A stretch of 64,000 nt of DNA from Clostridia bacterium (GCA_051886195.1 JBJEXW010000005.1:1360-65359), one strand, 5' to 3'; counted from the first letter of the stretch, positions 7,030 to 36,372 are shown. The notes: a model not told the origin generated them from the sequence alone. Program-made: numbers and translations.

Positions 7030-7058
7030 ATATTTTGTTCTAAATAAGTATTTTTTTT

Positions 7059-7109
7059 GCAAATTATTTGCAAATTTTAATTGTAAATGATGTCGATTTA
7101 TGGTATAAT
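7059..7109 (+). promoter_or_regulatory. mgtE promoter with upstream palindromic operator-like motif
   Basis: GCAAATTATTTGC palindrome (7059-7071), TTGTAA (7081-7086), 17 bp, TATAAT (7104-7109). Confidence 0.65.
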
Positions 7110-8701: not shown

Positions 8702-9913
8702 ATGAATAAAAAAAATCTGAAAATGAAATCAGTTTCAAGTGAATATATGGATCAGTATAATGCACTATTAAGATATGTATTTCAAGTTACAGATCAAGAA
8801 CTTAATTCTATAGGTTGGGAAGAAAAAGAGATAATAAGAGCTAAATTTCCAACGATGCAAAAAGCTGATGTAATAGGCTGGTTTGATAAAGATACTCTTG
8901 TATCACAAGTTGCTGTTTATCCAATGAAAGTTAGGATTTTTAATAAAACATATGATATGGGTGGTCTTACAGGAGTTGGAACTTATCCTGAATATTCAAA
9001 TCAGGGACTAATGCATAAATTGCTTGAAACAGCATTAAAAAAAATGAAGGAAAGGGGACAATATATAACATATCTTTTTCCATACTCTATACCATATTAT
9101 AGAAGAAAAGGTTGGGAAATAATATCAGATAAAATATCTTATGAAATAGATGATTATCAATTACCAAAAAATCGTCAAGTTTCAGGAGATGTTAGACGTG
9201 TAAAATATGATAGTGATGAGATAAAAGAAACATATAATAAATTTGCAATGCATACACATGGAGCAATATTAAGAGATGAACTTGCATGGAATGAGTATTG
9301 GCTATGGGACACAGATGATATTATGGCTGCAATTTATTATAATGAAAATCAAGAAGCTGATGGATATATTATCTATTGGTTGGCAGATGATGTATTTCAT
9401 ATAAAGGATATGATTTTTAATACAGAAGATGCAAGAACTGGACTTTGGAACTTTGTATCAGCACACTTTTCAATGATAGATAAAGTAGTAGGAGATACAT
9501 ATACAGATGAGCCTTTAGCATTTCTTTTAGAAGATGCAAGTATTAAAGAGACTATTTCTCCATATTATATGGCAAGAATTGTAGATTTTCAGGAATTTAT
9601 TGCAAGATATCCATTTAGAAAGAGCAATATAGAAAAAAGAGAATGGAAGTTTACTTTATCTGATCCAATAATGGAAGAAAACCAAGGAACGTTCATTTTA
9701 ACAATAGATAAAGATGGAAAGGCAATTGCAAATAAAGTATCTGGTAAGAGCGATGATACAATAAGTATCCAAACAATGACAACTCTACTTATGGGATATA
9801 AAAGACCTGAATATTTAGCAAAGATTGGAAGAATAAAAGCAGATAAGAAAACAATTGAAATGCTAGAAGATTCAATTGGGCAAGATATACCTTATGTGTC
9901 AGATTATTTCTAG
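8702..9913 (+). CDS. Eis-like GNAT acetyltransferase
   Basis: GVGTYPEYSNQGLM acetyl-CoA motif, LFPYSIPYYRRKGWE, 403 aa with an SCP2-like C-terminus. Confidence 0.85.
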   Translation: MNKKNLKMKSVSSEYMDQYNALLRYVFQVTDQELNSIGWEEKEIIRAKFPTMQKADVIGWFDKDTLVSQVAVYPMKVRIFNKTYDMGGLTGVGTYPEYSNQGLMHKLLETALKKMKERGQYITYLFPYSIPYYRRKGWEIISDKISYEIDDYQLPKNRQVSGDVRRVKYDSDEIKETYNKFAMHTHGAILRDELAWNEYWLWDTDDIMAAIYYNENQEADGYIIYWLADDVFHIKDMIFNTEDARTGLWNFVSAHFSMIDKVVGDTYTDEPLAFLLEDASIKETISPYYMARIVDFQEFIARYPFRKSNIEKREWKFTLSDPIMEENQGTFILTIDKDGKAIANKVSGKSDDTISIQTMTTLLMGYKRPEYLAKIGRIKADKKTIEMLEDSIGQDIPYVSDYF

Positions 9914-10045
9914 AAAAAAGGTGGTAACAATTAATTGATATATTGAAAATTATAATATCAATTGATTGTTGCTTTTTTATTTTAATTATTATGTAACTAA
10001 TTGAAAAAACTATGATACAAACTTATGTAATCTTACGGTAAAAAC

Positions 10046-10117
10046 GCAAATAAATTGCGTAAAAAAAGCAAATAATTTGCAAATTTTATAGACAAAATTA
10101 TAATACTAGAGTATAAT
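10046..10117 (+). promoter_or_regulatory. Promoter of the radical SAM-aminotransferase operon with two palindromic sites
   Basis: GCAAATAAATTGC (10046-10058), GCAAATAATTTGC (10068-10080), TAGACA (10089-10094), 17 bp, TATAAT (10112-10117). Confidence 0.65.
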
Positions 10118-10142
10118 TCCCATAAAAAGGGAGAGATGCAAA

Positions 10143-12299
10143 ATGAATAAAGAGCTTAGATTGATTGTAACAAGAAAATGTAATTATGACTGTTATTTTT
10201 GTCATGGAGAAGGAGTTGAAAAGGGAACTAAAGAAGTTTTTGATTCTAAAGATTACAAATATTTAGTAGACTTCTGCAAAAGAAAATATGGTTGGAATAC
10301 TGTAACTATTACTGGCGGTGAGCCCTTAGTTAGAGATGATATATTAGAAATAGTAAATTGTATGAAAGAATTAGATCTTAAAACGACATTAGTAAGTAAT
10401 GGAGAACTTATAGATAGAAATATGGCTTGTTTTGAAGGAATCGATAGATTAAATGTTTCGATACATACATTAAATACTAATCTATATGATCAAATTGTTC
10501 AAAGAAAAAATAAATTATCCAGAGTAATATATAACTTATCACAGCTTAGAAATTTAAATAAAGATATAGATATTAGAATTAATATGACAGTTGTGAAAAA
10601 TCAAAATGATACTATAGAAGAATTCAAAAACATTATTTCACTTGCTAAAAAAGTAAATGCTAGTATCAAAATAATTGAATTATTTAGTAAAAATAAGGAA
10701 GAAATAGTACCAATATATGAAATTAAGAAAAAACTAATTGAATTGAATTTTAAAGTTTTAGAAGAATATACCCATAAGATTGTACTTTTTGATGGAACTA
10801 CAAAAATTATATTATCTAAAATCTTTTGTGCAGCAGCAAATGATAGATACAATCCTAATAGTTATTGTAATTCATTTAATGATTTATTTGTGTCTCCTGA
10901 TGGAATAATTAAACTTTGCAGATATATAAAGCAAGAAGTAAGTATAAAAGATGAAGTAAAAAATAGAGACGACGAAGGATTAGAAAAAAAGATAAAACTT
11001 GCAAATTCTTTATTGGGCAAGCATTGTCCAATGAATACTATAGATAAACTCGCAATTAACGGTGGAAATCCTATAATTAGCAAAGAAGAAGGAAGATTTA
11101 TTCATCCAAAAATAACAAAAGAAATTGAAAAAGCTGTAATAGAACAATTACATGATACAATTTCTATTTATGATAATAGCAATATCTTTAAAAAGTTCGA
11201 AGAATCATTTGCAAAATATCATAATAAAAAATATGCATTAGTTACATCGTCTGGAACAAGTGCATTACATTCATTATATGATGCAATAAATTTAAGAGAA
11301 GGCGATGAGGTTATTTGTCCTATATATACTTTTTTTGCAACAGTATCACCAATATTTCAAACTGGTGCTAAACCAGTTTTTGTTGATTGTGATGAAACAG
11401 GAAATATAGATTATAAAAAGATAGAAGAAAAGATAAATAATAATACAAAAGCAATAATGGTAACACATATGTGGGGATATCCTTGTAAAATGGATGAACT
11501 CAGAAAAATAGCTGACAAGTATGGAATTTATTTACTTGAAGATTGTTCTCATGCACATGGAGGAGAATATAAAGGAAAAAAGTTAGGAGAATGGTCTGAT
11601 GCTGCCGCTTTTAGTTTGCAAGGAAATAAAATAATAACTGGTGGAGAAGGAGGAATTATAATTACAAATAATAAGTATATATATAAAAATTGTATATTAC
11701 TTGGTCATTATAATAAACGTTGTAAACAAGAAATAAATAAAAAAAGTACGGACTATAAATATGCAACAACTGGAAAAGGATTAAAGCTTAGAGCTCATCC
11801 ACTTGCAATTAGAATAGCATATGAGCAATTTAAAAATATAGATAATATTAATTCTATAAAACAGGATATGGTAAATATTATCAAAAATACTATTGATAAA
11901 ATAGATGGATTGACTTTAAATGAACCATATGAAGGAAGTAAATGTAGTTATTATGCGTTAATTATTAAGTATGATCCATCAAAGTTTAACAATTTACCTA
12001 TTGAAAGATTTATTGATGCTTTAAATGCAGAAGGGGGAGTTGAATATGATAAGCCCGGCTCTACATGTCCATTAAATAGGCTTGAATTATTCAAAAATCC
12101 TAGTTATTTTTTTCCTTCTTATGGTAAAATATTTGATGAAAATGAAAAGTTTGTTAATGCAGATAGATTTTATGATAATTCATTTAAAATCCCTGTTTGG
12201 TATAATAAAGAAGATGAAAATATTGTAATAAAGTATTGTGAAATATTAAATAAAGTTTCAAGGTATTATAAGAAGGAGGTAAAAAATGAAATTTTATGA
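10143..12299 (+). CDS. Fusion: MoaA/viperin-like radical SAM domain + DegT/DnrJ/EryC1/StrS PLP aminotransferase
   Basis: aa 1 to about 300: CNYDCYFC, TGGEP, VSNG and late Cys residues (FCAA, YCNS, LCRY). From aa 303: LAINGGNP, TSSGTSAL, VTHMWG, LEDCSHAHG, FSLQGNKIITGGEGG (PLP Lys). Single continuous frame. Confidence 0.9.
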   Translation: MNKELRLIVTRKCNYDCYFCHGEGVEKGTKEVFDSKDYKYLVDFCKRKYGWNTVTITGGEPLVRDDILEIVNCMKELDLKTTLVSNGELIDRNMACFEGIDRLNVSIHTLNTNLYDQIVQRKNKLSRVIYNLSQLRNLNKDIDIRINMTVVKNQNDTIEEFKNIISLAKKVNASIKIIELFSKNKEEIVPIYEIKKKLIELNFKVLEEYTHKIVLFDGTTKIILSKIFCAAANDRYNPNSYCNSFNDLFVSPDGIIKLCRYIKQEVSIKDEVKNRDDEGLEKKIKLANSLLGKHCPMNTIDKLAINGGNPIISKEEGRFIHPKITKEIEKAVIEQLHDTISIYDNSNIFKKFEESFAKYHNKKYALVTSSGTSALHSLYDAINLREGDEVICPIYTFFATVSPIFQTGAKPVFVDCDETGNIDYKKIEEKINNNTKAIMVTHMWGYPCKMDELRKIADKYGIYLLEDCSHAHGGEYKGKKLGEWSDAAAFSLQGNKIITGGEGGIIITNNKYIYKNCILLGHYNKRCKQEINKKSTDYKYATTGKGLKLRAHPLAIRIAYEQFKNIDNINSIKQDMVNIIKNTIDKIDGLTLNEPYEGSKCSYYALIIKYDPSKFNNLPIERFIDALNAEGGVEYDKPGSTCPLNRLELFKNPSYFFPSYGKIFDENEKFVNADRFYDNSFKIPVWYNKEDENIVIKYCEILNKVSRYYKKEVKNEIL

Positions 12300-13185
12300 T
12301 TATTTAATTGAAAAAGGCAAAGAAGATGGTATTGAGAAAAACGTTGTAGGAGCTGTTATTGTTAATGAAAAGAATGAAGTGCTAATAATGAGTAGAAAAG
12401 CTGATGATTTTATGGGGGGAATAGACGAGCTTCCAAGTGGAAATATGGAAAAAGGTGAAGATATTTTAAAAGCATTAACTCGCGAAGTAAAAGAAGAAAC
12501 TAATTTGGACTTGAAAGAAGTAATTTGTTTTATAAATTCTTTTGATTATATATCAGGAAGTGGTAAGAAAGCTCGTCAATATAATTTTGCAATAAAAGTT
12601 GAAAAAAATGGTGTAATTAAACTTACAGAGCATGATGCATATAAATGGGAATCATTACAAGAAGCTAGAGATAATGCTAAAATAACTGATGAAGTTAAAG
12701 AATGTTTAGAAATCTACAATTTTAATAATAAATCAAAAATGCTAGACTTTGAATGTCATTTTTGTGCTACTGCATGTATCTTAAATAAAGAAAAAAATAA
12801 GATATTATTTATTCATCATAAAAAATTAAATAAATGGCTTTTTGTTGGTGGCCATATTGAAGAAAATGAAAATCCAGAAGAAGCTGTATTAAGAGAAGTT
12901 AAAGAGGAAACAAATTTAGATATAGAATTAATAGGACAAAGATATCCAAGACAAGAAGATTTTATAAAGCCTTTTGCTTTACAAAAAAACATAGTAAAAG
13001 AAAATCATATTCATATGGATATTTTTTATGTGGCTATAGACAAAGGAACATCAAAGTTAAAAGAAAAAGAGGATGAAGTTTTAGGCAGTAAATGGTTTTC
13101 AAAAGAGCAAATTATTAGTGAAGATTTTGATACTTTTCCTGAAAAGAAAAAGATGGCAATTGATGTATTAGAAATGTTTAAATAA
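12286..13185 (+). CDS. Tandem double-NUDIX hydrolase
   Basis: Two intact boxes, GNMEKGEDILKALTREVKEETNL and GHIEENENPEEAVLREVKEETNL; overlaps the upstream gene by 14 nt. Confidence 0.92.
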   Translation: MKFYDYLIEKGKEDGIEKNVVGAVIVNEKNEVLIMSRKADDFMGGIDELPSGNMEKGEDILKALTREVKEETNLDLKEVICFINSFDYISGSGKKARQYNFAIKVEKNGVIKLTEHDAYKWESLQEARDNAKITDEVKECLEIYNFNNKSKMLDFECHFCATACILNKEKNKILFIHHKKLNKWLFVGGHIEENENPEEAVLREVKEETNLDIELIGQRYPRQEDFIKPFALQKNIVKENHIHMDIFYVAIDKGTSKLKEKEDEVLGSKWFSKEQIISEDFDTFPEKKKMAIDVLEMFK

Positions 13186-13193
13186 AGAAATAT

Positions 13194-13240
13194 TCTCTCT
13201 CAAAGTATTAATTATAAAATATTTTGAGAGAGATTTTTTT
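13194..13240 (+). terminator. Intrinsic terminator closing the radical SAM/NUDIX operon
   Basis: TCTCTCTCAAA / TTTGAGAGAGA stem followed by T7. Confidence 0.7.
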
Positions 13241-13292: not shown

Positions 13293-13796
13293 ATGAAAGT
13301 AGCAATTTTAGGATATAGTGGTTCAGGTAAGTCAACTCTTGCAAGAAAAATTGGAGAAAAATATAATATTCCGGTGTTACACTTAGATAAAGTTAATTTT
13401 ACAAAAAATTGGAAAGAAAGAGAAACTAGTGAAGCAAGAGAAATTGTAGAAGATTTTTTAGAAAATGATTCATGGGTAATTGATGGAAATTATTCAAAGC
13501 TAGAACAAGATAGAAGAATTAAAGAGGCAGATAAAATTATTTTTTTAGATTTTCCAGCAAGAGTATGTCTTCATAGAGCTTATAAAAGATACTTAGAAAA
13601 TAAAAATAAGACTAGAATAGATATGGCAAATGATTGTGAAGAAAAGTTCGATTTTGAGTTTATAAAATGGATACTATTTGATGGAAGAGATAAAAAGCAT
13701 AAAGAAAAATATCAAGAAATTTGTAATAAATATAAAGACAAAACAATTATATGTAAAAATAGTAGAGAAGTAGACGAAGCTTTAGAAAGGTTATAG
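13293..13796 (+). CDS. Adenylate kinase-like P-loop protein (topology modulation protein/FlaR family)
   Basis: GYSGSGKSTLA Walker A, LHLD, WVIDGNY, IIFLDFP, CEEKFDFEFIKW. Confidence 0.85.
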   Translation: MKVAILGYSGSGKSTLARKIGEKYNIPVLHLDKVNFTKNWKERETSEAREIVEDFLENDSWVIDGNYSKLEQDRRIKEADKIIFLDFPARVCLHRAYKRYLENKNKTRIDMANDCEEKFDFEFIKWILFDGRDKKHKEKYQEICNKYKDKTIICKNSREVDEALERL

Positions 13797-13797
13797 T

Positions 13798-14673
13798 ATG
13801 CATGATATATGGAATCCATGGCATGGATGCAAAAAGATAAGCGAAGGATGTAAAAACTGTTATATGTATTATTTAGATAAGGTCAGAAATCAAGATGGAA
13901 GCAATATATATAAAGTTTCAAACAATTTTGATTATCCTTTACATAAGGACAGAAAAGGAAGTTATAAGATAAAAAGTGGTGAACAAATAAGAATATGTAT
14001 GACATCAGATTTTTTTATAGAAGAAGCGGATGAGTGGAGAAAAGAAGTGTGGGAAATAATTAGACAAAGATCAGATGTTATATTTTTTATTTTAACAAAG
14101 AGACCAGATAGGGTACTAAATAATTTACCAGATTGGTGGGGAGAAGGTCTAGAAAATGTTTTTTTTAATGTAACATGTGAAAATCAAAAAAGAGCAGATG
14201 AAAGAATACCAATATTATTTTCACTCCCCTTTAAGCATAAGGGAATTATGGTCGCACCATTTATAGGTAAAGTCGATATTGAAAAATATTTAAAAGAAGG
14301 TGTAATTGAACAAGTTATTGCAGGAGGAGAAAATTATGATGGAGCAAGGCCATTAGAATATGACTGGGTTAAGCTTTTAAGTGATGAATGCAAAAAATAT
14401 AATACTAGATTTGCTTTTATTGAAACTGGAAATATATTTATAAAAGATAAAAAAATGTATAAAATAAAAAGTAAACATACTCAAGCCAAGCTTGCATATA
14501 AGTCAGGATTAAGTTATGAAGGAAAGAAAATTGAGTTTAAATTAACAGATGAACTTGGTATTCCTTTAAGAAATGAAGATTTATATGTAGCATATTTTGG
14601 TGAAAATTGTAAAGAATGTGGCAATAAGATGATATGTAATGGTTGTTCTAAATGTGGCAAATGCTATAAATAG
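13798..14673 (+). CDS. DUF5131 (phage Gp37/Gp68-like) protein
   Basis: WNPWHGCKKISEGCKNCYM, CMTSDFF, ILTKRP, GGEN; Cys-rich C-terminus. Confidence 0.85.
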   Translation: MHDIWNPWHGCKKISEGCKNCYMYYLDKVRNQDGSNIYKVSNNFDYPLHKDRKGSYKIKSGEQIRICMTSDFFIEEADEWRKEVWEIIRQRSDVIFFILTKRPDRVLNNLPDWWGEGLENVFFNVTCENQKRADERIPILFSLPFKHKGIMVAPFIGKVDIEKYLKEGVIEQVIAGGENYDGARPLEYDWVKLLSDECKKYNTRFAFIETGNIFIKDKKMYKIKSKHTQAKLAYKSGLSYEGKKIEFKLTDELGIPLRNEDLYVAYFGENCKECGNKMICNGCSKCGKCYK

Positions 14674-15861: not shown

Positions 15862-16031
15862 TTATACTGTTTTTGAAATGAAATATAAAGAAAATAACAC
15901 TTATTTAAAATATAAGTGTTATTTTTTGCATTAAAAACTATTGCTAATTACAAATAATAGCAGTATAATTATTTAGCAATTTAATAGTGAAATAAAAATA
16001 TTAATATATATTTATGAAAGGAGGGATATAT

Positions 16032-16919
16032 ATGATTTTAGTAACAGGTAGAAATTACGCAGGAAAGACCACTATTAAAAATAAATTGGCAAGGAAAATG
16101 GGACTTAAAAATGCTACTATATTTACTACAAGAAAGAAAACCCCGCAAGATATGATAAGAACTAACTATAGATTTGTTTCTATTGAAGAATTTGAAAAAA
16201 TGAAAGAACAAGGAGTATTTAAAGTTGTTACTACAAATGGTTTGGGTCAATTAAGTGGTATTTCAAATTCTGAATTTGAAAGAAGTGATGCTATTTTAGA
16301 ACTAGATTTAGGTTCATTAATGTCAATTATTGATGATTTACCAAATAGTTGTAAAGTGATTTTTGTTGATGCAGCAGTTGAAGCTAGATTTTGTAGAATG
16401 GTAAAAGATAATTATAGTATATGTGATTCTTTTAGAATATTGCATAAAGAGAATTTTAATGGATATGAATTACCATTTGGAATTGTTGCAGATAACTCAC
16501 TTGAAGATAATGGAGAATGTGCAACAAGAAGTATTATAAATAGTTTGAGTCAATATTCAAATTTAGGTGTAGTCAACGCTCAAAATATGAAATCTAAGAA
16601 AATATATGTTTCTCCTATTATTTATCCAAATAATACATCAAATATAAGAAATTTTCTTTCTTATGAGCAGTGGGCACTTCGAGAAATAAGGAAGGTATGT
16701 AATTTAAGTGATCCAGAAGGAAGAAAATTTGCTAAGACTATGTATAGAAATTATTTATCTGAATATAGAACTTTAAATTCAGCAGATTTTAGATATAATT
16801 CTTTAACTCAAGAATTAGGGATAAACTTAGATGGTATATATTTTCCTCTTGCAAAAGATGAGGCATTAGCTCCAGATATAAAAGGAGTAGTAAGAGAAAA
16901 AATTAAAAGGGAAAGATGA
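16032..16919 (+). CDS. Divergent guanylate kinase-like protein with an extra C-terminal region
   Basis: GRNYAGKTT P-loop, FTTRKK and NYRFVSIEEFEKM resemble Gmk; about 110 additional aa unrecognised. Start moved to 16032 (GGAGG RBS). Confidence 0.65.
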   Translation: MILVTGRNYAGKTTIKNKLARKMGLKNATIFTTRKKTPQDMIRTNYRFVSIEEFEKMKEQGVFKVVTTNGLGQLSGISNSEFERSDAILELDLGSLMSIIDDLPNSCKVIFVDAAVEARFCRMVKDNYSICDSFRILHKENFNGYELPFGIVADNSLEDNGECATRSIINSLSQYSNLGVVNAQNMKSKKIYVSPIIYPNNTSNIRNFLSYEQWALREIRKVCNLSDPEGRKFAKTMYRNYLSEYRTLNSADFRYNSLTQELGINLDGIYFPLAKDEALAPDIKGVVREKIKRER

Positions 16920-17019: not shown

Positions 17020-18177
17020 ATGGATGAGAAATTTGTACTTTTAACAGATGATTGTAGTAATTATACAAATGTTCAAGCTAAAGAAATAGAGCGAGTAAGA
17101 GGAGGACTTAAGCCTTCCTGCAGTAAAATAAAATGGTATACACCACCATCAGCATTTCCAGAGTATTATTCTAAATGGCAAGAATATGACAGAATGGATT
17201 TAACAGATGGTAAGCCAAATAATGATGAAGTTTTAGATGATGGAAAGTATAATCCTGGAACTAGATATGTAATGTATAGTAGTCTTAAAGATACTACTAT
17301 TAGGATTAGACCTTCCAAATTTAAAGAGGTGTTAGCAAGAGTTAATGCAAGTGTAAAATATCAAAATATACCTGATGATATAGTTAGAACTTTAGTGGCA
17401 AGAGAAATAGGAAACTCTTTAGAAAATCATAATATTAAACATGTAATATGTGAGATAGATGATTTAAGTGATGTTATAGTTTTAGAAGATATTTTTGCTG
17501 CAAGTGACTATATAGATCCTGTAGAACATGACATATTAAAAAATGAAATTAAGCTATATATTTTTGATCCTCATGCTATATATCATGCATCAGAAGATAA
17601 AAAATTTAAAGCATACTCAGATATAAAAGCAAGAGTTGAAAAAGGTTTTTATAAAAAGAAAATTGAATTTTTGGACATGCTAAGATGGGATAAAACAATG
17701 GAACCTAAAAGCAGGGATTCATATTTAAGATGCGGAGTTTTTCCAAAAGACGGAGAAACACCAGAGCAATGTTATGATAGAGTTAAACCATACCTAGAGC
17801 AATTATATAGAGATTTTGAAAGATATAAAGATAATTATGAAGAATTTAAAATACAAATATTTAAAAGACTACCTAGAGCTGTATCACCAGAAAGAAACGA
17901 ATGGGATGAGAGATATAATGATGAAGCAATAACAGAAGCATTAGTTCAGGGATATGTTAGGTTTTTTAGTGGTTTATATATATCATCTGATGCAGAAAAA
18001 AATATTTGTATTGATGCAGATAAAAGAAGAAGATTTAGATATAATAGAAGCTTTCAAGTAACATCACTTGCTATATTTGATTCAAATGCATTAGAACTTG
18101 AAAAAGTAATTGATGTTGAAGAAATTAGACTAAAAAATATTGAAGTCAAAAAAAGGGAACAAGAAAATGTTAGATAG
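17020..18177 (+). CDS. Hypothetical soluble protein (no family recognised)
   Basis: 385 aa ORF with GAGGTG RBS and AT-rich codon usage like its neighbours. Confidence 0.75.
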   Translation: MDEKFVLLTDDCSNYTNVQAKEIERVRGGLKPSCSKIKWYTPPSAFPEYYSKWQEYDRMDLTDGKPNNDEVLDDGKYNPGTRYVMYSSLKDTTIRIRPSKFKEVLARVNASVKYQNIPDDIVRTLVAREIGNSLENHNIKHVICEIDDLSDVIVLEDIFAASDYIDPVEHDILKNEIKLYIFDPHAIYHASEDKKFKAYSDIKARVEKGFYKKKIEFLDMLRWDKTMEPKSRDSYLRCGVFPKDGETPEQCYDRVKPYLEQLYRDFERYKDNYEEFKIQIFKRLPRAVSPERNEWDERYNDEAITEALVQGYVRFFSGLYISSDAEKNICIDADKRRRFRYNRSFQVTSLAIFDSNALELEKVIDVEEIRLKNIEVKKREQENVR

Positions 18178-18185
18178 GAGTTGTT

Positions 18186-18788
18186 ATGGAAAATAGATTT
18201 TATAATATGAATACACCGCTTGCATATCAAGTTACAGAGTATGATTGTGGTCAAGCAACATTATTAAATGCAATGAGGTATTTGTTTAAAAGAGGTGAGA
18301 TACCTCCTATTATTATAAAATATATAACACTATATACTTTGGATACAATTGGTGAAAACGGACAACTTGGGCTTTGTGGTACTTCACCTCATGCTATAGA
18401 GTATTTATCTAATTGGATTAATACAAGTACGGGATTAATAAACTTAAAATTAAGTTCTAAAATTTTAAAAGGAAATGAAGTAGATATTAATAATATAGAA
18501 CTGTATGAGTGTATAAAATCTGGAGGAGTTGCTGTTTTAAGAGTATGGTCTGAATGTGAACATTATGTTCTATGTACTGGTATTGATGAAAAATGTGTAT
18601 ATATTTTTGATCCATATTATTTAAAAGAAAATGAGTATGATGATGACTCGAACGTAATAATGATTACAAATAAACCTTTTGAATATAATCGTGTAGTATC
18701 AAAGAAAAGATTAAATGAAAATTCAAAAAATGACTTTTCACTTGTAAAAGATGAAGAAAAGAGAATTTTATTATTATACAAAAAATAA
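18186..18788 (+). CDS. Peptidase C39-like cysteine protease (stand-alone)
   Basis: QVTEYDCG (Q-x5-C) and HYVL...IFDPY give a Cys/His/Asp triad; no ABC domain. Confidence 0.8.
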   Translation: MENRFYNMNTPLAYQVTEYDCGQATLLNAMRYLFKRGEIPPIIIKYITLYTLDTIGENGQLGLCGTSPHAIEYLSNWINTSTGLINLKLSSKILKGNEVDINNIELYECIKSGGVAVLRVWSECEHYVLCTGIDEKCVYIFDPYYLKENEYDDDSNVIMITNKPFEYNRVVSKKRLNENSKNDFSLVKDEEKRILLLYKK

Positions 18789-35311: not shown

Positions 35312-35340
35312 TTGCAAATCATCTGCAAAAATGTTATAAT
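35312..35340 (+). promoter_or_regulatory. Extended -10 promoter of the Ca2+/Na+ antiporter gene
   Basis: TTGCAA, 17 bp, TG-n-TATAAT; the spacer contains a GCAAATCATCTGC near-palindrome. Confidence 0.7.
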
Positions 35341-35421: not shown

Positions 35422-36372
35422 ATGATGCAGATGATACAAAATATTGTATTCATTGCTATTGGCTTTGCTATGCTTATGTTAGGAGCCAAATGGCTGGTAG
35501 ATGGATCAAGTGCAATTGCACGAAAATATCATATACCTGAGATTGTTATTGGACTTACAATAGTATCAATTGGAACATCTATGCCAGAGCTTATGGTTAG
35601 CTTTACTTCTGCACTTGAAGGACATTCAGACATTTCTGTAGGAAATGTAATAGGCAGTAATTTATGCAATTTATTGCTTATTTTAGGACTTACGTCTATT
35701 GTTACACCATTAGTTTTTAGTAAGACAACAAAAGATTATGATATTTCCATTATGCTTTTTTCAACTATAATTGTACTATTACTTGCTAATAAAGGAAATA
35801 TTTTAAGTAGAGCAGATGGTATTTTATTACTAGTACTTTTTATTTTCTTTATTTTATATACAATAAAAATTGCTCAAAAAAGCATGAATAATTGTAAAGA
35901 GAATGAAGCTGAAATTCCAAAAGGAAAAATGATAGTATCTGTAATAAAAATATTAGTAGGAATAGTATTACTAAAATTTGGTGGCGACATAAGTGTAAAT
36001 AATGCAGTTGAGGTTGCACAGATATTAGGAGTTTCAGAAAGAATAATAGGAGTAACTATTGTTGCAATTGGAACAAGTTTGCCTGAGCTTATCACATCAA
36101 TTGTGGCTGCATTTAAAAAAGAGATAGATATTGCAATTGGCAATATAGTAGGCTCAAATATATTTAATCTATTATTAATACTTGGTGTTTCTGCCACTAT
36201 TAGTCCTATAGTGTATAGTATCGAATATAACTTAGATTTTATTCTATTAAGTATTGCTAGTCTTTTATTATTATGTTTTGCTATGTTTGGAAAAAAAGAT
36301 ACTATGACAAGATTTAACGGATTGATTTATTTATTAATGTATGGTGGATATATGGCCAGTTTGATTTTTTAG
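35422..36372 (+). CDS. Calcium/sodium antiporter (YrbG/CaCA family)
   Basis: Two alpha repeats, GTSMPEL...GNVIGSN and GTSLPEL...GNIVGSN. Confidence 0.93.
   Translation: MMQMIQNIVFIAIGFAMLMLGAKWLVDGSSAIARKYHIPEIVIGLTIVSIGTSMPELMVSFTSALEGHSDISVGNVIGSNLCNLLLILGLTSIVTPLVFSKTTKDYDISIMLFSTIIVLLLANKGNILSRADGILLLVLFIFFILYTIKIAQKSMNNCKENEAEIPKGKMIVSVIKILVGIVLLKFGGDISVNNAVEVAQILGVSERIIGVTIVAIGTSLPELITSIVAAFKKEIDIAIGNIVGSNIFNLLLILGVSATISPIVYSIEYNLDFILLSIASLLLLCFAMFGKKDTMTRFNGLIYLLMYGGYMASLIF

Follow-up and report, generated by a model that had tools for sequence, protein, structure and literature searches.

A Radical SAM-Aminotransferase Fusion with a NUDIX Partner in Clostridia Is a Putative Variant of the Puromycin/ADG Aminonucleoside Cassette

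A two-gene operon of a gut anaerobe, a Clostridia bacterium, is probably a radical SAM-dependent variant of the aminonucleoside cassette of puromycin synthesis and of 3'-amino-3'-deoxyguanosine (ADG) synthesis in Photorhabdus, and is predicted to oxidize and aminate a purine nucleoside triphosphate (NTP) at C3'. From the domains of the unit and the company they keep in other genomes, we infer its substrate, the order of its steps, its product, and its role. An earlier, sequence-only reading of the window, the stretch of 64,000 nucleotides that was analyzed, regarded the system as new. It is instead most probably a variant of the known Pur/Adg cassette, and the Photorhabdus adg operon had been missed (PMC9239236).

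Results

Both genes, and all other features of the unit, are on the + strand. The first open reading frame (ORF; 10,143-12,299, 718 aa) joins a radical SAM (rSAM) domain and a DegT-family PLP aminotransferase (AT) in one frame, and the second (12,286-13,185, 299 aa) encodes two NUDIX domains. The ATG of the NUDIX ORF at 12,286 is located 14 nt within the 3' end of the fusion ORF and has AGGAGG 8 nt upstream; its first domain (NUDa) is translationally coupled to the fusion. The ORFs, their 14-nt overlap, and the Pfam matches bear out the sequence-only reading, which described an in-frame fusion overlapped by a tandem NUDIX gene. Its claim that the unit has its own promoter and terminator also agrees with the two hairpins that bracket the unit and with a conserved promoter-like site.

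At the 5' boundary, an AT-rich hairpin with a U-run follows an Eis-like GNAT gene (9,923-9,973; RNA fold of -21 kcal/mol, z of -5.3, with none of the shuffles folding equally well), and at the 3' boundary there is an intrinsic-terminator hairpin with a 16-bp stem and a T-run (13,194-13,233; -22.9 kcal/mol, z of -7.3). The terminator scan recovered two sites versus 0.5 expected. The spacer upstream of the fusion has the best promoter-like site of the region, TAGACA-17-TATAAT (10,089-10,117; 11 of 12 matches). In this AT-rich DNA, promoter-like sites taken together are no more frequent than expected (31 vs. 30.5); this site and its flanking sequence are kept in relatives, including L003, in which the unit is at another chromosomal position. 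Two palindromic boxes, ACGCAAATAAATTGCGT and AGCAAATAATTTGCA (direct repeat D11; 10,045-10,083), are a candidate operator. Both boxes are kept 5' of the unit in L001, L003, and L007, the second is present in L004, and a perfect copy, TGCAAATAATTTGCA, is located 5' of mgtE (7,058-7,072). The ribosome-binding site AAAGGGAGAG (10,127-10,136), ahead of the ATG at 10,143, is also conserved in relatives.

Residues 1-296 of the fusion (10,143-11,030) form a MoaA-fold rSAM domain according to Pfam, NCBIfam, and AF2/Foldseek. Radical_SAM (PF04055) matches residues 8-164 (1.9e-19; 70.9 bits vs. a cut-off of 29.5), and the domain has the hallmarks of the superfamily: a CX3CX2C motif (C13, C17, and C20, all invariant), a conserved GGEP-type SAM motif (G58-G59-E60-P61, residues 58-61), and a matching fold. 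The AF2 model (pLDDT of 91.5) is best matched in Foldseek by MoaA (TM of 0.77 over about 310 columns) and also matches SuiB and viperin. The nearest structures, those of MoaA (GTP), viperins (CTP/UTP), DesII, AbmM, and BlsE, are of enzymes that use nucleotides or nucleotide-linked substrates, which supports a nucleotide substrate. Alignment to true MoaAs indicates that R17 of MoaA is retained as R6. Outside of the SAM motif, C229, C242, and C259 are conserved and C295 is near-invariant, and these residues are compatible with a fully ligated auxiliary cluster. The domain is not a MoaA itself (TIGR02668, 131.7 vs. 325.25; NF001199, 119.6 vs. 231; TIGR02666, 107.7 vs. 284), nor a viperin (NF038283, 67.4 bits vs. 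a cut-off of 180; the MoaA models score higher). By kinship, it is probably not a BtrN-type (twitch) dehydrogenase either, with BtrN absent from the sequence matches with E below 0.01 and from the top 50 fold matches, although its four additional Cys would suit the fully ligated, electron-accepting auxiliary cluster of that class.

The remainder of the fusion (11,031-12,299; residues about 300-718) comprises a linker and a DegT/DnrJ/EryC1/StrS PLP aminotransferase, with PF01041 (DegT_DnrJ_EryC1) matching residues 324-694 (1.3e-74; 252 bits vs. a cut-off of 19.8). The PLP lysine is K496 (nt 11,628-11,630) in the motif SLQGNKIITGGEGG, and 14 of 15 fusions retain both this residue and D467, which is part of LLEDCSHAHG. 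DegT-family dehydratases have a His in place of this lysine; the domain, with PF01041, Lys rather than His, and the Asp, belongs with the aminotransferases. By sequence and fold, it is close to sugar and inosose ATs (BtrR, 7b0m, QdtB, and perosamine synthase), with Fic25, 7b0m, and BtrR as the top Foldseek matches and the fold of QdtB matching as well. To our knowledge, there is no structure of Pur4 with which to discriminate aminonucleotide from sugar or inosose ATs. With every curated NCBIfam model short of its cut-off, and none of the sources checked giving a specific name, the rSAM-AT fusion family is uncharacterized.

These similarities bring up amino-sugar or aminocyclitol chemistry of the DesI/DesII, BtrN/BtrR, NtdC/NtdA, or RifL/RifK kanosamine type, in which an NDP-sugar, sugar phosphate, or inositol oxidized by the rSAM domain would receive an amino group from the AT, and a NUDIX domain would cleave the NDP-amino-sugar. 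Among solved structures, the AT is best matched by sugar and 2-deoxy-scyllo-inosose aminotransferases, its top NCBIfam matches are PseC and LegC, and NDP-sugars can be hydrolyzed by NUDIX enzymes. UDP-sugar 3-amination and kanosamine pathways, too, typically pair a Gfo/Idh/MocA protein with a DegT protein, and BtrN/BtrR are a precedent for an rSAM dehydrogenase with a DegT AT. However, all sugar-AT models of NCBIfam are far under cut-off, and the AT is 43% identical to the AT of an adg-type cassette (L104; 396 aa, 1e-115) versus 24-31% to sugar and inosose ATs. Also against a sugar substrate, the nearest solved relatives of NUDa are MutT/NUDT18-type nucleoside tri- and diphosphatases, and the accessory partners of the cassette are all nucleotide enzymes (HD, NT5C, CYTH, guanylate kinase [Gmk], TMPK/dNK, and MazG). 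Neither the window nor the rSAM-type loci examined have glycosyltransferase, nucleotidyltransferase, sugar-activating, or polysaccharide genes. We consider amino-sugar chemistry quite improbable.

In the second ORF, Pfam finds two NUDIX stretches (1.8e-36), and both Nudix boxes are intact, with REVKEETN occurring twice. NUDa (12,286-12,735; Nudix box at nt 12,439-12,507) is 60% identical to the NUDIX protein of a Pacearchaeota rSAM cassette, 52% to the NUDIX domain of a Gfo-AT-NUDIX fusion (P0043), and 39% (1e-20) to that of L104. Pur7 acts as a pyrophosphatase, and NUDa, a NUDIX encoded next to the AT as are Pur7 and AdgD, is predicted to be their equivalent. The second domain (NUDb; 12,736-13,185, intact Nudix box at nt 12,850-12,918) shows only distant kinship to NUDa. 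Its counterpart is a separate gene in L008, L009, and L011, and elsewhere it is replaced by HD (L012 and L027), NT5C (L015), CYTH (L025), or a box-less NUDIX-like protein (L019, L022, L028, and L030). Of the NUDIX pair that the sequence-only reading took to mature or detoxify the product, only NUDa is the conserved partner of the fusion; NUDb behaves across loci as a variable accessory hydrolase.

Genomes of 12 other GTDB species contain full-length copies of the fusion, as do over 100 metagenome protein clusters (90% identity), and a NUDIX always follows. The fusion is therefore real and not an assembly artifact, a worry raised at the outset. Only the fusion and the NUDIX are kept across unrelated genomic contexts, and the unit changes chromosomal position among close relatives; in L021, it adjoins an integrase and a primase.

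The closest relatives of the AT occupy a dehydrogenase-aminotransferase-NUDIX cassette. Across 81 non-redundant loci of the clade of this AT, a Gfo/Idh/MocA gene is directly upstream of the AT in 50, an rSAM is fused or adjacent to it in 23, and a NUDIX is at most two genes downstream in 59. Judged by their sequences, the AT and NUDa of the window are orthologous to those of a very widespread Gfo/Idh/MocA-AT-NUDIX cassette, and rSAM and Gfo interchange at the dehydrogenase position. Parts of the cassette also occur as single polypeptides (Gfo-AT, AT-NUDIX, Gfo-AT-NUDIX, and Gfo-AT-AAA_18 kinase-NUDIX). In a neighbor-joining tree of the AT domain, which carries no support values, rSAM-linked ATs fall at a minimum of three to four separate places among Gfo-linked ATs. 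This scatter suggests repeated non-orthologous displacement of the dehydrogenase, the partner of the AT appearing to have been swapped several times between rSAM and Gfo.

Plasmid pBMSBPS2 of Candidatus Pantoea carbekii (L104) encodes only RepA and a Gfo-AT-NUDIX-inositol monophosphatase set, which has the gene layout of adgBCDE and of pur10/4/7/3. The tie to the characterized adg and pur operons consists of this four-gene layout and, at the level of sequence, a weak match to the termini that published primers imply. The Gfo-type cassette is abundant in small-genome CPR/DPANN organisms, where it is accompanied by further kinases, another NUDIX, and unknown proteins. An NRPS is immediately downstream in L022, L100 contains an ATP-grasp enzyme together with another aminotransferase, and a cluster on a B. 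thuringiensis plasmid has a tRNA ligase and a GNAT.

Neighbors of the unit in the window are pflB and genes encoding a PFL activase, a GlmM-like mutase, MgtE, the Eis-like GNAT, a FlaR-like kinase, DUF5131, an Ord-like dehydrogenase, and fatty-acid synthesis enzymes; the region is housekeeping and not a defense island. As the sequence-only reading noted, there are no glycosyltransferase, NDP-sugar, or Moco genes near the unit in the window. That reading named homologs consistently embedded in Moco or capsule/LPS clusters as grounds for abandoning its proposal; the rSAM-type loci examined have no polysaccharide genes, and moaC and other Moco genes are absent from the window neighborhood and from the related loci examined.

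The same reading proposed an intracellular anti-phage role, with a 3'-amino-3'-deoxy-NTP end product that terminates polymerase chains and NUDIX domains that limit self-toxicity. The logic would be like that of pVip, and nucleotide kinases accompany the cassette in relatives too. PADLOC matches the rSAM domain to pVip models (1e-19), the NUDIX to candidate PDC-S07 (1.6e-28), and the neighboring DUF5131 to PDC-M30B/M41B, and the mobility of the unit and the integrase and primase of L021 are also in keeping with this role. But the PADLOC matches are generic, that to pVip covering only the generic rSAM core (residues 8-170), and the pVip model of NCBIfam (67 vs. 180) is outscored by MoaA models. 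There are no homologs among 50,697 phage records, and there is no infection sensor or regulator. A pyrophosphatase that is obligatorily co-translated, and sometimes fused, would destroy the active triphosphate. The HD, NT5C, and IMPase partners point to a nucleoside product, and that of the characterized adg relative is an exported antibiotic (PMC9239236). An anti-phage role is accordingly highly improbable.

Discussion

In the mechanism we favor, that of a variant aminonucleoside cassette, the MoaA-fold rSAM domain would bind a purine NTP and a 5'-deoxyadenosyl radical would take the C3' hydrogen of the sugar. The sugar radical would become a 3'-ketone by giving one electron to a Cys-ligated auxiliary [4Fe-4S] cluster, in a BtrN-like manner, so that the domain would stand in for the NAD-dependent Gfo/Idh/MocA dehydrogenase (Pur10/AdgB). 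The labile 3'-keto-nucleotide would be handed directly to the fused DegT AT (Pur4/AdgC equivalent) to yield a 3'-amino-3'-deoxy-nucleotide, and NUDa would strip pyrophosphate, detoxifying a would-be RNA-chain terminator. NUDb, or HD, NT5C, or IMPase in relatives, could aid further breakdown to the nucleoside, which, once released, may be a prodrug against competitors that re-phosphorylate it. The succession of rSAM oxidation, DegT transamination, and NUDIX cleavage had already been proposed, and this part of the earlier chemistry is backed by genomics, through orthology to Gfo-type cassettes and the dehydrogenase swaps.

Because coupling to a NUDIX is near-universal and HD, NT5C, and IMPase partners recur, the end product would more likely be a dephosphorylated aminonucleoside, a prodrug antibiotic, than the retained chain-terminating NTP envisaged before. 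The unit in the window has no exporter and no monophosphatase, and the NUDIX fold is no typical 5'-nucleotidase; relatives have HD or NT5C in the place of a Pur3/AdgE-type monophosphatase. The wide presence of the Gfo-type cassette in CPR/DPANN organisms is a poor fit for an antibiotic role and a hint of another physiological use.

A nucleotide substrate could also undergo other chemistry, such as 2'-amination or DesII-like radical deamination or deoxygenation, or serve another purpose, as a building block for a peptidyl-nucleoside, a cofactor, or RNA/DNA modification, or in nucleotide salvage or sanitizing in a reduced metabolism. We infer the 3' regiochemistry, and the abundance of the cassette in CPR/DPANN, with its additional genes there, would accord with such uses. 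The NRPS, ATP-grasp, tRNA ligase, and GNAT neighbors suggest that some lineages probably elaborate the amino-nucleoside further. In the window, however, two genes with their own promoter and terminator leave no co-transcribed tailoring enzymes, the PLP lysine fits a transaminase, and the swap with an NAD dehydrogenase speaks for an rSAM domain that does no more than form a ketone. Other chemistry or another purpose is therefore unlikely.

Within the aminonucleoside reading, we tentatively raise the possibility that a MoaA-scaffold NTP 3'-dehydrogenase lets strict anaerobes make ADG-like 3'-amino-3'-deoxy-purine nucleosides from two genes. If so, a radical SAM nucleoside-triphosphate 3'-dehydrogenase would be a previously unrecognized activity, and common gut Clostridia and Bacilli, along with some DPANN archaea, would be among the producers. 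A gut compound would selectively poison bacteria that re-phosphorylate the aminonucleoside, making the operon a candidate small-molecule factor in colonization resistance. Considering the much larger Gfo-type family, aminonucleoside production would be widespread among uncultured lineages.

Known systems resemble the unit to different extents. pVip enzymes share generic sequence and fold similarity and the use of a radical SAM on an NTP ribose to give chain-terminating nucleotides, and are often kinase-linked, but viperins have no auxiliary cluster, dehydrate rather than oxidize, and have no AT or NUDIX partner. In butirosin synthesis, the DegT AT BtrR (BtrS) aminates a ketone formed by BtrN, an rSAM dehydrogenase that has an auxiliary [4Fe-4S] cluster. 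Neomycin producers use an NAD-dependent dehydrogenase for the step of BtrN. This pair is thus a precedent for displacement between rSAM and NAD enzymes, and BtrR is among the top AT matches, whereas its substrate is an aminocyclitol, its enzymes are unfused, and it has no NUDIX partner.

MoaA abstracts H-3' of GTP and contacts the 3'-OH through R17; three Cys (CX2CX13C) ligate its auxiliary cluster and leave a site open for guanine N1, R17, R266, and R268 are strictly conserved, and the protein ends in Gly-Gly (PMC9026282). The rSAM domain is alike over the whole-domain fold, including the C-terminal auxiliary-cluster region, and keeps the N-x-S motif and two basic residues. In contrast, the second Cys of CX2C is F245, C229 and C295 are without MoaA counterparts and are possible alternative ligands, and the fusion lacks the C-terminal Gly-Gly. 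In place of the arginines R266 and R268, with which MoaA binds guanine, the fusion has invariant D247 and F249, so a guanine substrate is not readable from MoaA.

In puromycin synthesis by Streptomyces alboniger, Pur10, Pur4, and Pur3 carry out ATP 3'-oxidation, transamination, and monophosphate removal, respectively (PMC9239236). Pur7 is the NUDIX pyrophosphatase of this pathway. The unit in the window differs in its class of dehydrogenase and in having none of the aminoacylation, methylation, and acetylation tailoring. The adgA-E operon of Photorhabdus luminescens directs ADG synthesis, adgB-E yield ADG when expressed in E. coli, and ADG hits E. coli through Gsk and Gmk (PMC9239236). The unit shares with adg a small, self-contained operon in which dehydrogenase, DegT aminotransferase, NUDIX, and a further phosphohydrolase follow one another, and, as predicted, an NTP substrate from whose product a NUDIX removes pyrophosphate. 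Where AdgB is a free Gfo/Idh/MocA NAD enzyme, the unit has no such domain and instead has a MoaA-fold radical SAM fused to the AT, and in place of the inositol-monophosphatase-type AdgE and the MFS exporter AdgA, it has a second NUDIX.

A conserved two-gene unit

The unit comprises two genes on the forward strand. The first (window 10143–12299) encodes, in a single frame, a 718-aa protein in which a radical SAM (rSAM) domain (Pfam Radical_SAM, residues 8–164) is joined to an aminotransferase (AT) domain of the DegT family (Pfam DegT_DnrJ_EryC1, residues 324–694, 1.3e-74); NCBIfam MoaA models span residues 3–288 with scores far under their cut-offs. The second (window 12286–13185) encodes a 299-aa protein with two NUDIX domains (NUDa and NUDb), each with an intact Nudix box. 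Its ATG sits 14 nt within the 3′ end of the fusion ORF, with AGGAGG 8 nt upstream, which suggests the genes are translationally coupled. ORFs and Pfam matches thus confirm the in-frame fusion, overlapped by a tandem NUDIX gene, that the sequence-only reading had described.

Full-length fusions (56–86% identity) are encoded in 12 other GTDB species genomes, which by their record titles are Clostridia and Bacilli MAGs, several from animal guts. Over 100 protein clusters (90% identity) contain it as well, under no other names than “aminotransferase class V-fold PLP-dependent enzyme” or “dTDP-4-amino-4,6-dideoxygalactose transaminase/MoaA”. This distribution shows that the fusion is real rather than an assembly artefact, an alternative raised earlier. 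A NUDIX gene follows in every locus that reaches past the fusion gene, either as a 300-aa double NUDIX or as two separate ∼150-aa genes, and flanks are otherwise unrelated in 7 of the 12 genomes. The conserved entity is the two-gene unit of fusion and NUDIX. Directly upstream of a 56%-identical fusion in locus L019 (5056–6861; also in L020) is a gene for a 601-aa protein that combines a LysR regulator (HTH_1 and LysR_substrate) with a second MoaA-like rSAM domain (MoaA model, 1e-41). Such joining of a transcription factor to a paralogue of the rSAM enzyme of the pathway is an unusual architecture.

Strong hairpins with U-runs bound the unit on its 5′ side (9923–9973, forward strand, z −5.3) and 3′ side (13194–13233, forward strand, z −7.3). 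Upstream, at 10089–10117 on the forward strand, is a promoter-like TAGACA-17-TATAAT site, of a class of hexamers that shows no enrichment in the AT-rich DNA of the window (∼27% G+C). This site, two palindromic boxes just 5′ of it, and the RBS are all kept in relatives, including L003, whose unit occupies another chromosomal position. The 7-1-7 palindrome TGCAAATnATTTGCA, which resembles Fur-family or LacI/PurR-type operators, has two copies ahead of the unit (10045–10083), a perfect copy upstream of mgtE (7058–7072), and copies with two mismatches upstream of pflB (2444–2458) and of an ORF starting at 35422 (35313–35327). Its count across the window is not above chance (11 versus 11.5 expected); its intergenic placement and conservation in relatives suggest a regulator common to the genes that bear it. 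A search for riboswitches and other known RNAs found none, either in the leader or across the window as a whole.

Neighborhood and position of the unit

The flanking genes are ordinary for the chromosome of an anaerobe (pflB and genes for PFL activase, a GlmM-like mutase, mgtE, an Eis-like GNAT, a FlaR-like kinase, a DUF5131 protein, an Ord-like dehydrogenase, an rRNA methyltransferase, a lipoate ligase, and fabH), and no glycosyltransferase, NDP-sugar, or Moco genes are found around the unit in the window. The GNAT, kinase, and DUF5131 protein were considered as core parts and rejected because they are not kept with the unit and are set apart by terminators. The Eis-like three-domain acetyltransferase is encoded directly 5′ of the unit (8702–9913), with a terminator between, and its gene is not beside the unit in most relatives. 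Eis-type enzymes acetylate the amines of aminoglycosides, so this one could conceivably protect its own cell against an amino-nucleoside. Directly 3′ (13293–13796) is the gene of the FlaR-type P-loop kinase (“DNA topology modulation protein”, 250 bits), with a promoter-like site of its own, and three genes beyond it (16014–16919) is that of a 301-aa protein whose N-terminus weakly resembles guanylate kinase; neither gene is a conserved companion of the unit. The DUF5131 protein (291 aa, Cys-rich C-terminus; 13798–14673), two genes downstream, has PADLOC hits to the candidate defence families PDC-M30B and M41B (1e-32) and a weak match to “radical SAM mobile pair protein A”; it adjoins the unit in L001, L002, and L007 and not elsewhere. 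A conserved pair at 17020–18788, a 385-aa protein without a family match and a 200-aa C39-like (DUF3335) peptidase, is syntenic in L001–L004 and L007.

Across close relatives (∼85% identity; L001–L007), the unit and its conserved leader occupy differing sites in an otherwise syntenic region. In L003 and L024, the unit is found between mgtE and the GlmM-like gene; in L001, L002, and L007 it follows mgtE, and in the window it follows the Eis-like gene. Direct or inverted repeats were sought as marks of a mobile cassette, and none flanking the unit was convincing or accounted for its relocation.

Comparison with related cassettes

Relatives of the AT domain place the unit within a larger group of cassettes. 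In an HMMER scan of 1.8 billion representatives, with Pfam then run on selected matches, the nearest relatives of the AT domain share 40–55% identity. They occur as stand-alone proteins (∼420 aa), as fusions of AT with rSAM, with a Gfo/Idh/MocA dehydrogenase (Gfo), or with NUDIX, and as the longer polypeptides Gfo-AT-NUDIX (952 aa) and Gfo-AT-AAA_18 kinase-NUDIX (1132 aa). A metagenome scan gave 80 more loci, and loci were annotated with a reference set compiled during the analysis; removal of redundancy at 90% AT identity left 81. A Gfo gene is directly upstream of AT in 50 of these, an rSAM is fused or adjacent to AT in 23, and NUDIX is at most two genes downstream of AT in 59. The rSAM domain stands where Gfo does in a cassette that is otherwise conserved, and is therefore most simply taken to carry out the same oxidation. 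The fusion of rSAM to AT, together with single polypeptides that run Gfo-AT-NUDIX, argues for the order dehydrogenase, transaminase, and NUDIX. In a neighbor-joining tree of ATs, computed without support values, rSAM-linked ATs fall at least at three to four separate places among Gfo-linked ATs; if the tree holds, the exchange would have happened repeatedly. A precedent for such displacement is BtrN versus the NAD-dependent 2-deoxy-scyllo-inosamine dehydrogenases.

NUDa is the orthologue of the cassette NUDIX, with 60% identity to the NUDIX of a Pacearchaeota rSAM-AT-NUDIX-NT5C cluster and 52% to the NUDIX domain of the Gfo-AT-NUDIX fusion. NUDb is only distant kin of NUDa and variable among loci. 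Other rSAM-type loci have in its stead an HD phosphohydrolase (L012, L027), a protein of the NT5C 5′(3′)-deoxyribonucleotidase family (L015), a NUDIX-like protein lacking the box (L019, L022, L028, L030), or a CYTH protein (L025). Other recurring neighbors are CYTH triphosphate-tunnel proteins, guanylate kinase, TMPK/dNK-type kinases, and MazG, each of which acts on nucleotides. Nucleotide kinases recur in distant relatives as partners or fusion domains (related protein P0018; Gmk in L022; TMPK/dNK in L086).

Some cassettes are parts of larger gene sets. In L022 (10220–16151; also in L023), CYTH, fusion, NUDIX, and box-less NUDIX-like genes are followed by a guanylate kinase gene and a large NRPS gene (C-A-T-C-A-T...), and the product of this lineage may be a peptidyl-aminonucleoside. 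On DPANN/CPR-type contigs (L015, 2761–9261; L067, L070, L086), the cassette is inside a conserved set that includes a ∼365-aa protein without a Pfam match, a TMPK/dNK-like kinase, a second NUDIX of ∼180 aa, a ∼390-aa protein with a C-terminal winged HTH, and CYTH. Another nucleotide chemistry, or another purpose, is possible, given the abundance of the Gfo-type cassette in CPR/DPANN genomes with extra conserved genes of unknown function and the NRPS or ATP-grasp enzymes that come after the cassette in some loci.

The radical SAM domain

AlphaFold models have high confidence (pLDDT 89 for the full-length protein and 91.5 for the rSAM domain). MoaA gives the best fold match to the rSAM domain, along its entire length (TM 0.77); next come SuiB, viperins, DesII, AbmM, and BlsE. 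Across fusions and stand-alone relatives, C13/C17/C20 and GGEP are kept, as are N86-G87, N104-x-S106-x-H108, N147, K176, C229, C242, and C259; C295 is nearly always kept. When aligned to true MoaAs, C242 and C259 correspond to the first and third cysteines of the auxiliary cluster, whereas F245 is located where MoaA has its second (CX2C). Invariant D247 and F249 replace the guanine-binding R266 and R268 of MoaA, and the C-terminal Gly-Gly is absent. Conversely, R17 of MoaA, which contacts the 3′-OH and N7 (PMC9026282), is retained as R6. From these residues, we read the domain as a MoaA-derived enzyme and not as MoaA. Its auxiliary cluster may be ligated by four cysteines, as in rSAM enzymes whose substrate radical is quenched by oxidation. 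Searches of the literature turned up no paper describing either an rSAM-DegT fusion or an rSAM nucleotide dehydrogenase.

Probable relationship to aminonucleoside pathways

A tblastn search of plasmids linked the unit to pBMSBPS2 of Candidatus Pantoea carbekii (L104; NZ_CP010909.1). The whole plasmid (6287 bp) encodes only repA and a Gfo/Idh/MocA oxidoreductase, an aminotransferase, a NUDIX, and an inositol monophosphatase, the same gene content and order as adgB-E of Photorhabdus luminescens. The adgB-E genes are described as homologues of pur10, pur4, pur7, and pur3 of puromycin synthesis and in Escherichia coli yielded 3′-amino-3′-deoxyguanosine from GTP (PMC9239236). That compound is a prodrug; E. 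coli Gsk and Gmk turn the nucleoside into a chain-terminating GTP mimic (PMC9239236). We equate the P. carbekii cassette with adg on the basis of their shared layout, to which a weak match of primer-deduced termini adds (AdgB MKLVIIGC... versus MKISIIGC...; AdgE ...DSVIASLNS versus ...EEIVNALN). None of the best 120 matches listed in a NUDIX-profile search is a named Pur7 or AdgD. Because its plasmid holds just RepA and an adgBCDE-type operon, this stink-bug gut symbiont is suggested to make an aminonucleoside. Two other plasmids carry ATs of the same clade. In Bacillus thuringiensis (NZ_CP126475.1, 1079–9826; L106), an AT 39% identical to that of the window is encoded with an NAD(P) oxidoreductase, MFS, a 589-aa hypothetical protein, a MazG-like protein, a class I tRNA ligase, and a GNAT, in what looks like a nucleoside-type antibiotic cluster carrying a resistant tRNA synthetase copy. 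A Streptomyces plasmid cluster (Gfo, AT, thymidine phosphorylase, and glycosyltransferases) likewise looks like one for a nucleoside antibiotic.

Over 396 aa, the window AT and the P. carbekii AT share 43% identity (1e-115), and NUDa shares 39% with the P. carbekii NUDIX (1e-20); against the best solved sugar or inosose aminotransferases, identity of the window AT is only 24–31%. Amino-sugar or cyclitol chemistry could be expected from the solved-structure neighbors of the AT, all of which are sugar or inosose enzymes, but it is disfavored by the complete absence of sugar-pathway genes from the window and the rSAM-type loci compared, and by partners that are nucleotide-specific. A PMP-dependent dehydratase (E1/ColD-like 2′-deoxygenation) was rejected because the catalytic Lys is present.

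The main explanation, which we consider probable, is that the unit is an rSAM variant of the Adg/Pur aminonucleoside cassette. The rSAM domain would abstract H-3′ and transfer an electron to the auxiliary cluster, converting an NTP to a 3′-keto-NTP with one SAM per turnover. The ketone would be handed straight to the fused AT (PLP Lys K496) to form a 3′-amino-3′-deoxy-NTP, which NUDa would cleave to monophosphate and pyrophosphate; NUDb or host enzymes would then release the nucleoside. Guanine is hinted at as the base by the MoaA ancestry and by the guanylate kinase that adjoins the cassette in L022 and L023. Against it, the guanine ligands of MoaA are lost and adenylate-kinase-like and TMPK/dNK-like kinases are also partners. 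The predicted nucleotide oxidation, amination, and NUDIX chemistry, put forward from the sequence, finds strong support in comparative genomics. Its anti-phage extension, in which a retained amino-NTP would confer phage defence, is not supported. The pyrophosphatase is obligatory and joined by further phosphohydrolase partners, the unit lacks a sensor, and its context is housekeeping; a search for phage origin or phage homologues of the unit found none, and PADLOC returned only generic or candidate-family matches.

If true, a nucleotide sugar hydroxyl oxidized by a MoaA-like enzyme hard-wired to a transaminase would be a new type of rSAM reaction, and the cassettes would offer a clear natural case of non-orthologous displacement, between NAD and rSAM dehydrogenases, within one conserved cassette. 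Several hundred proteins presently named only “aminotransferase class V-fold PLP-dependent enzyme”, “radical SAM protein”, or “NUDIX hydrolase” gain a functional hypothesis, and the minimal two-gene unit is defined, making a test by heterologous expression easy. The literature cited covers Streptomyces and Photorhabdus as bacterial producers of aminonucleoside antibiotics; such biosynthesis would then extend to gut anaerobes and to numerous bacteria and archaea that are uncultured. The unit had been put forward as a candidate new system; it is better viewed as a variant of the Adg/Pur cassettes than as a categorically new one, and relative to them, the predicted rSAM nucleotide 3′-dehydrogenase would be the new enzyme activity.
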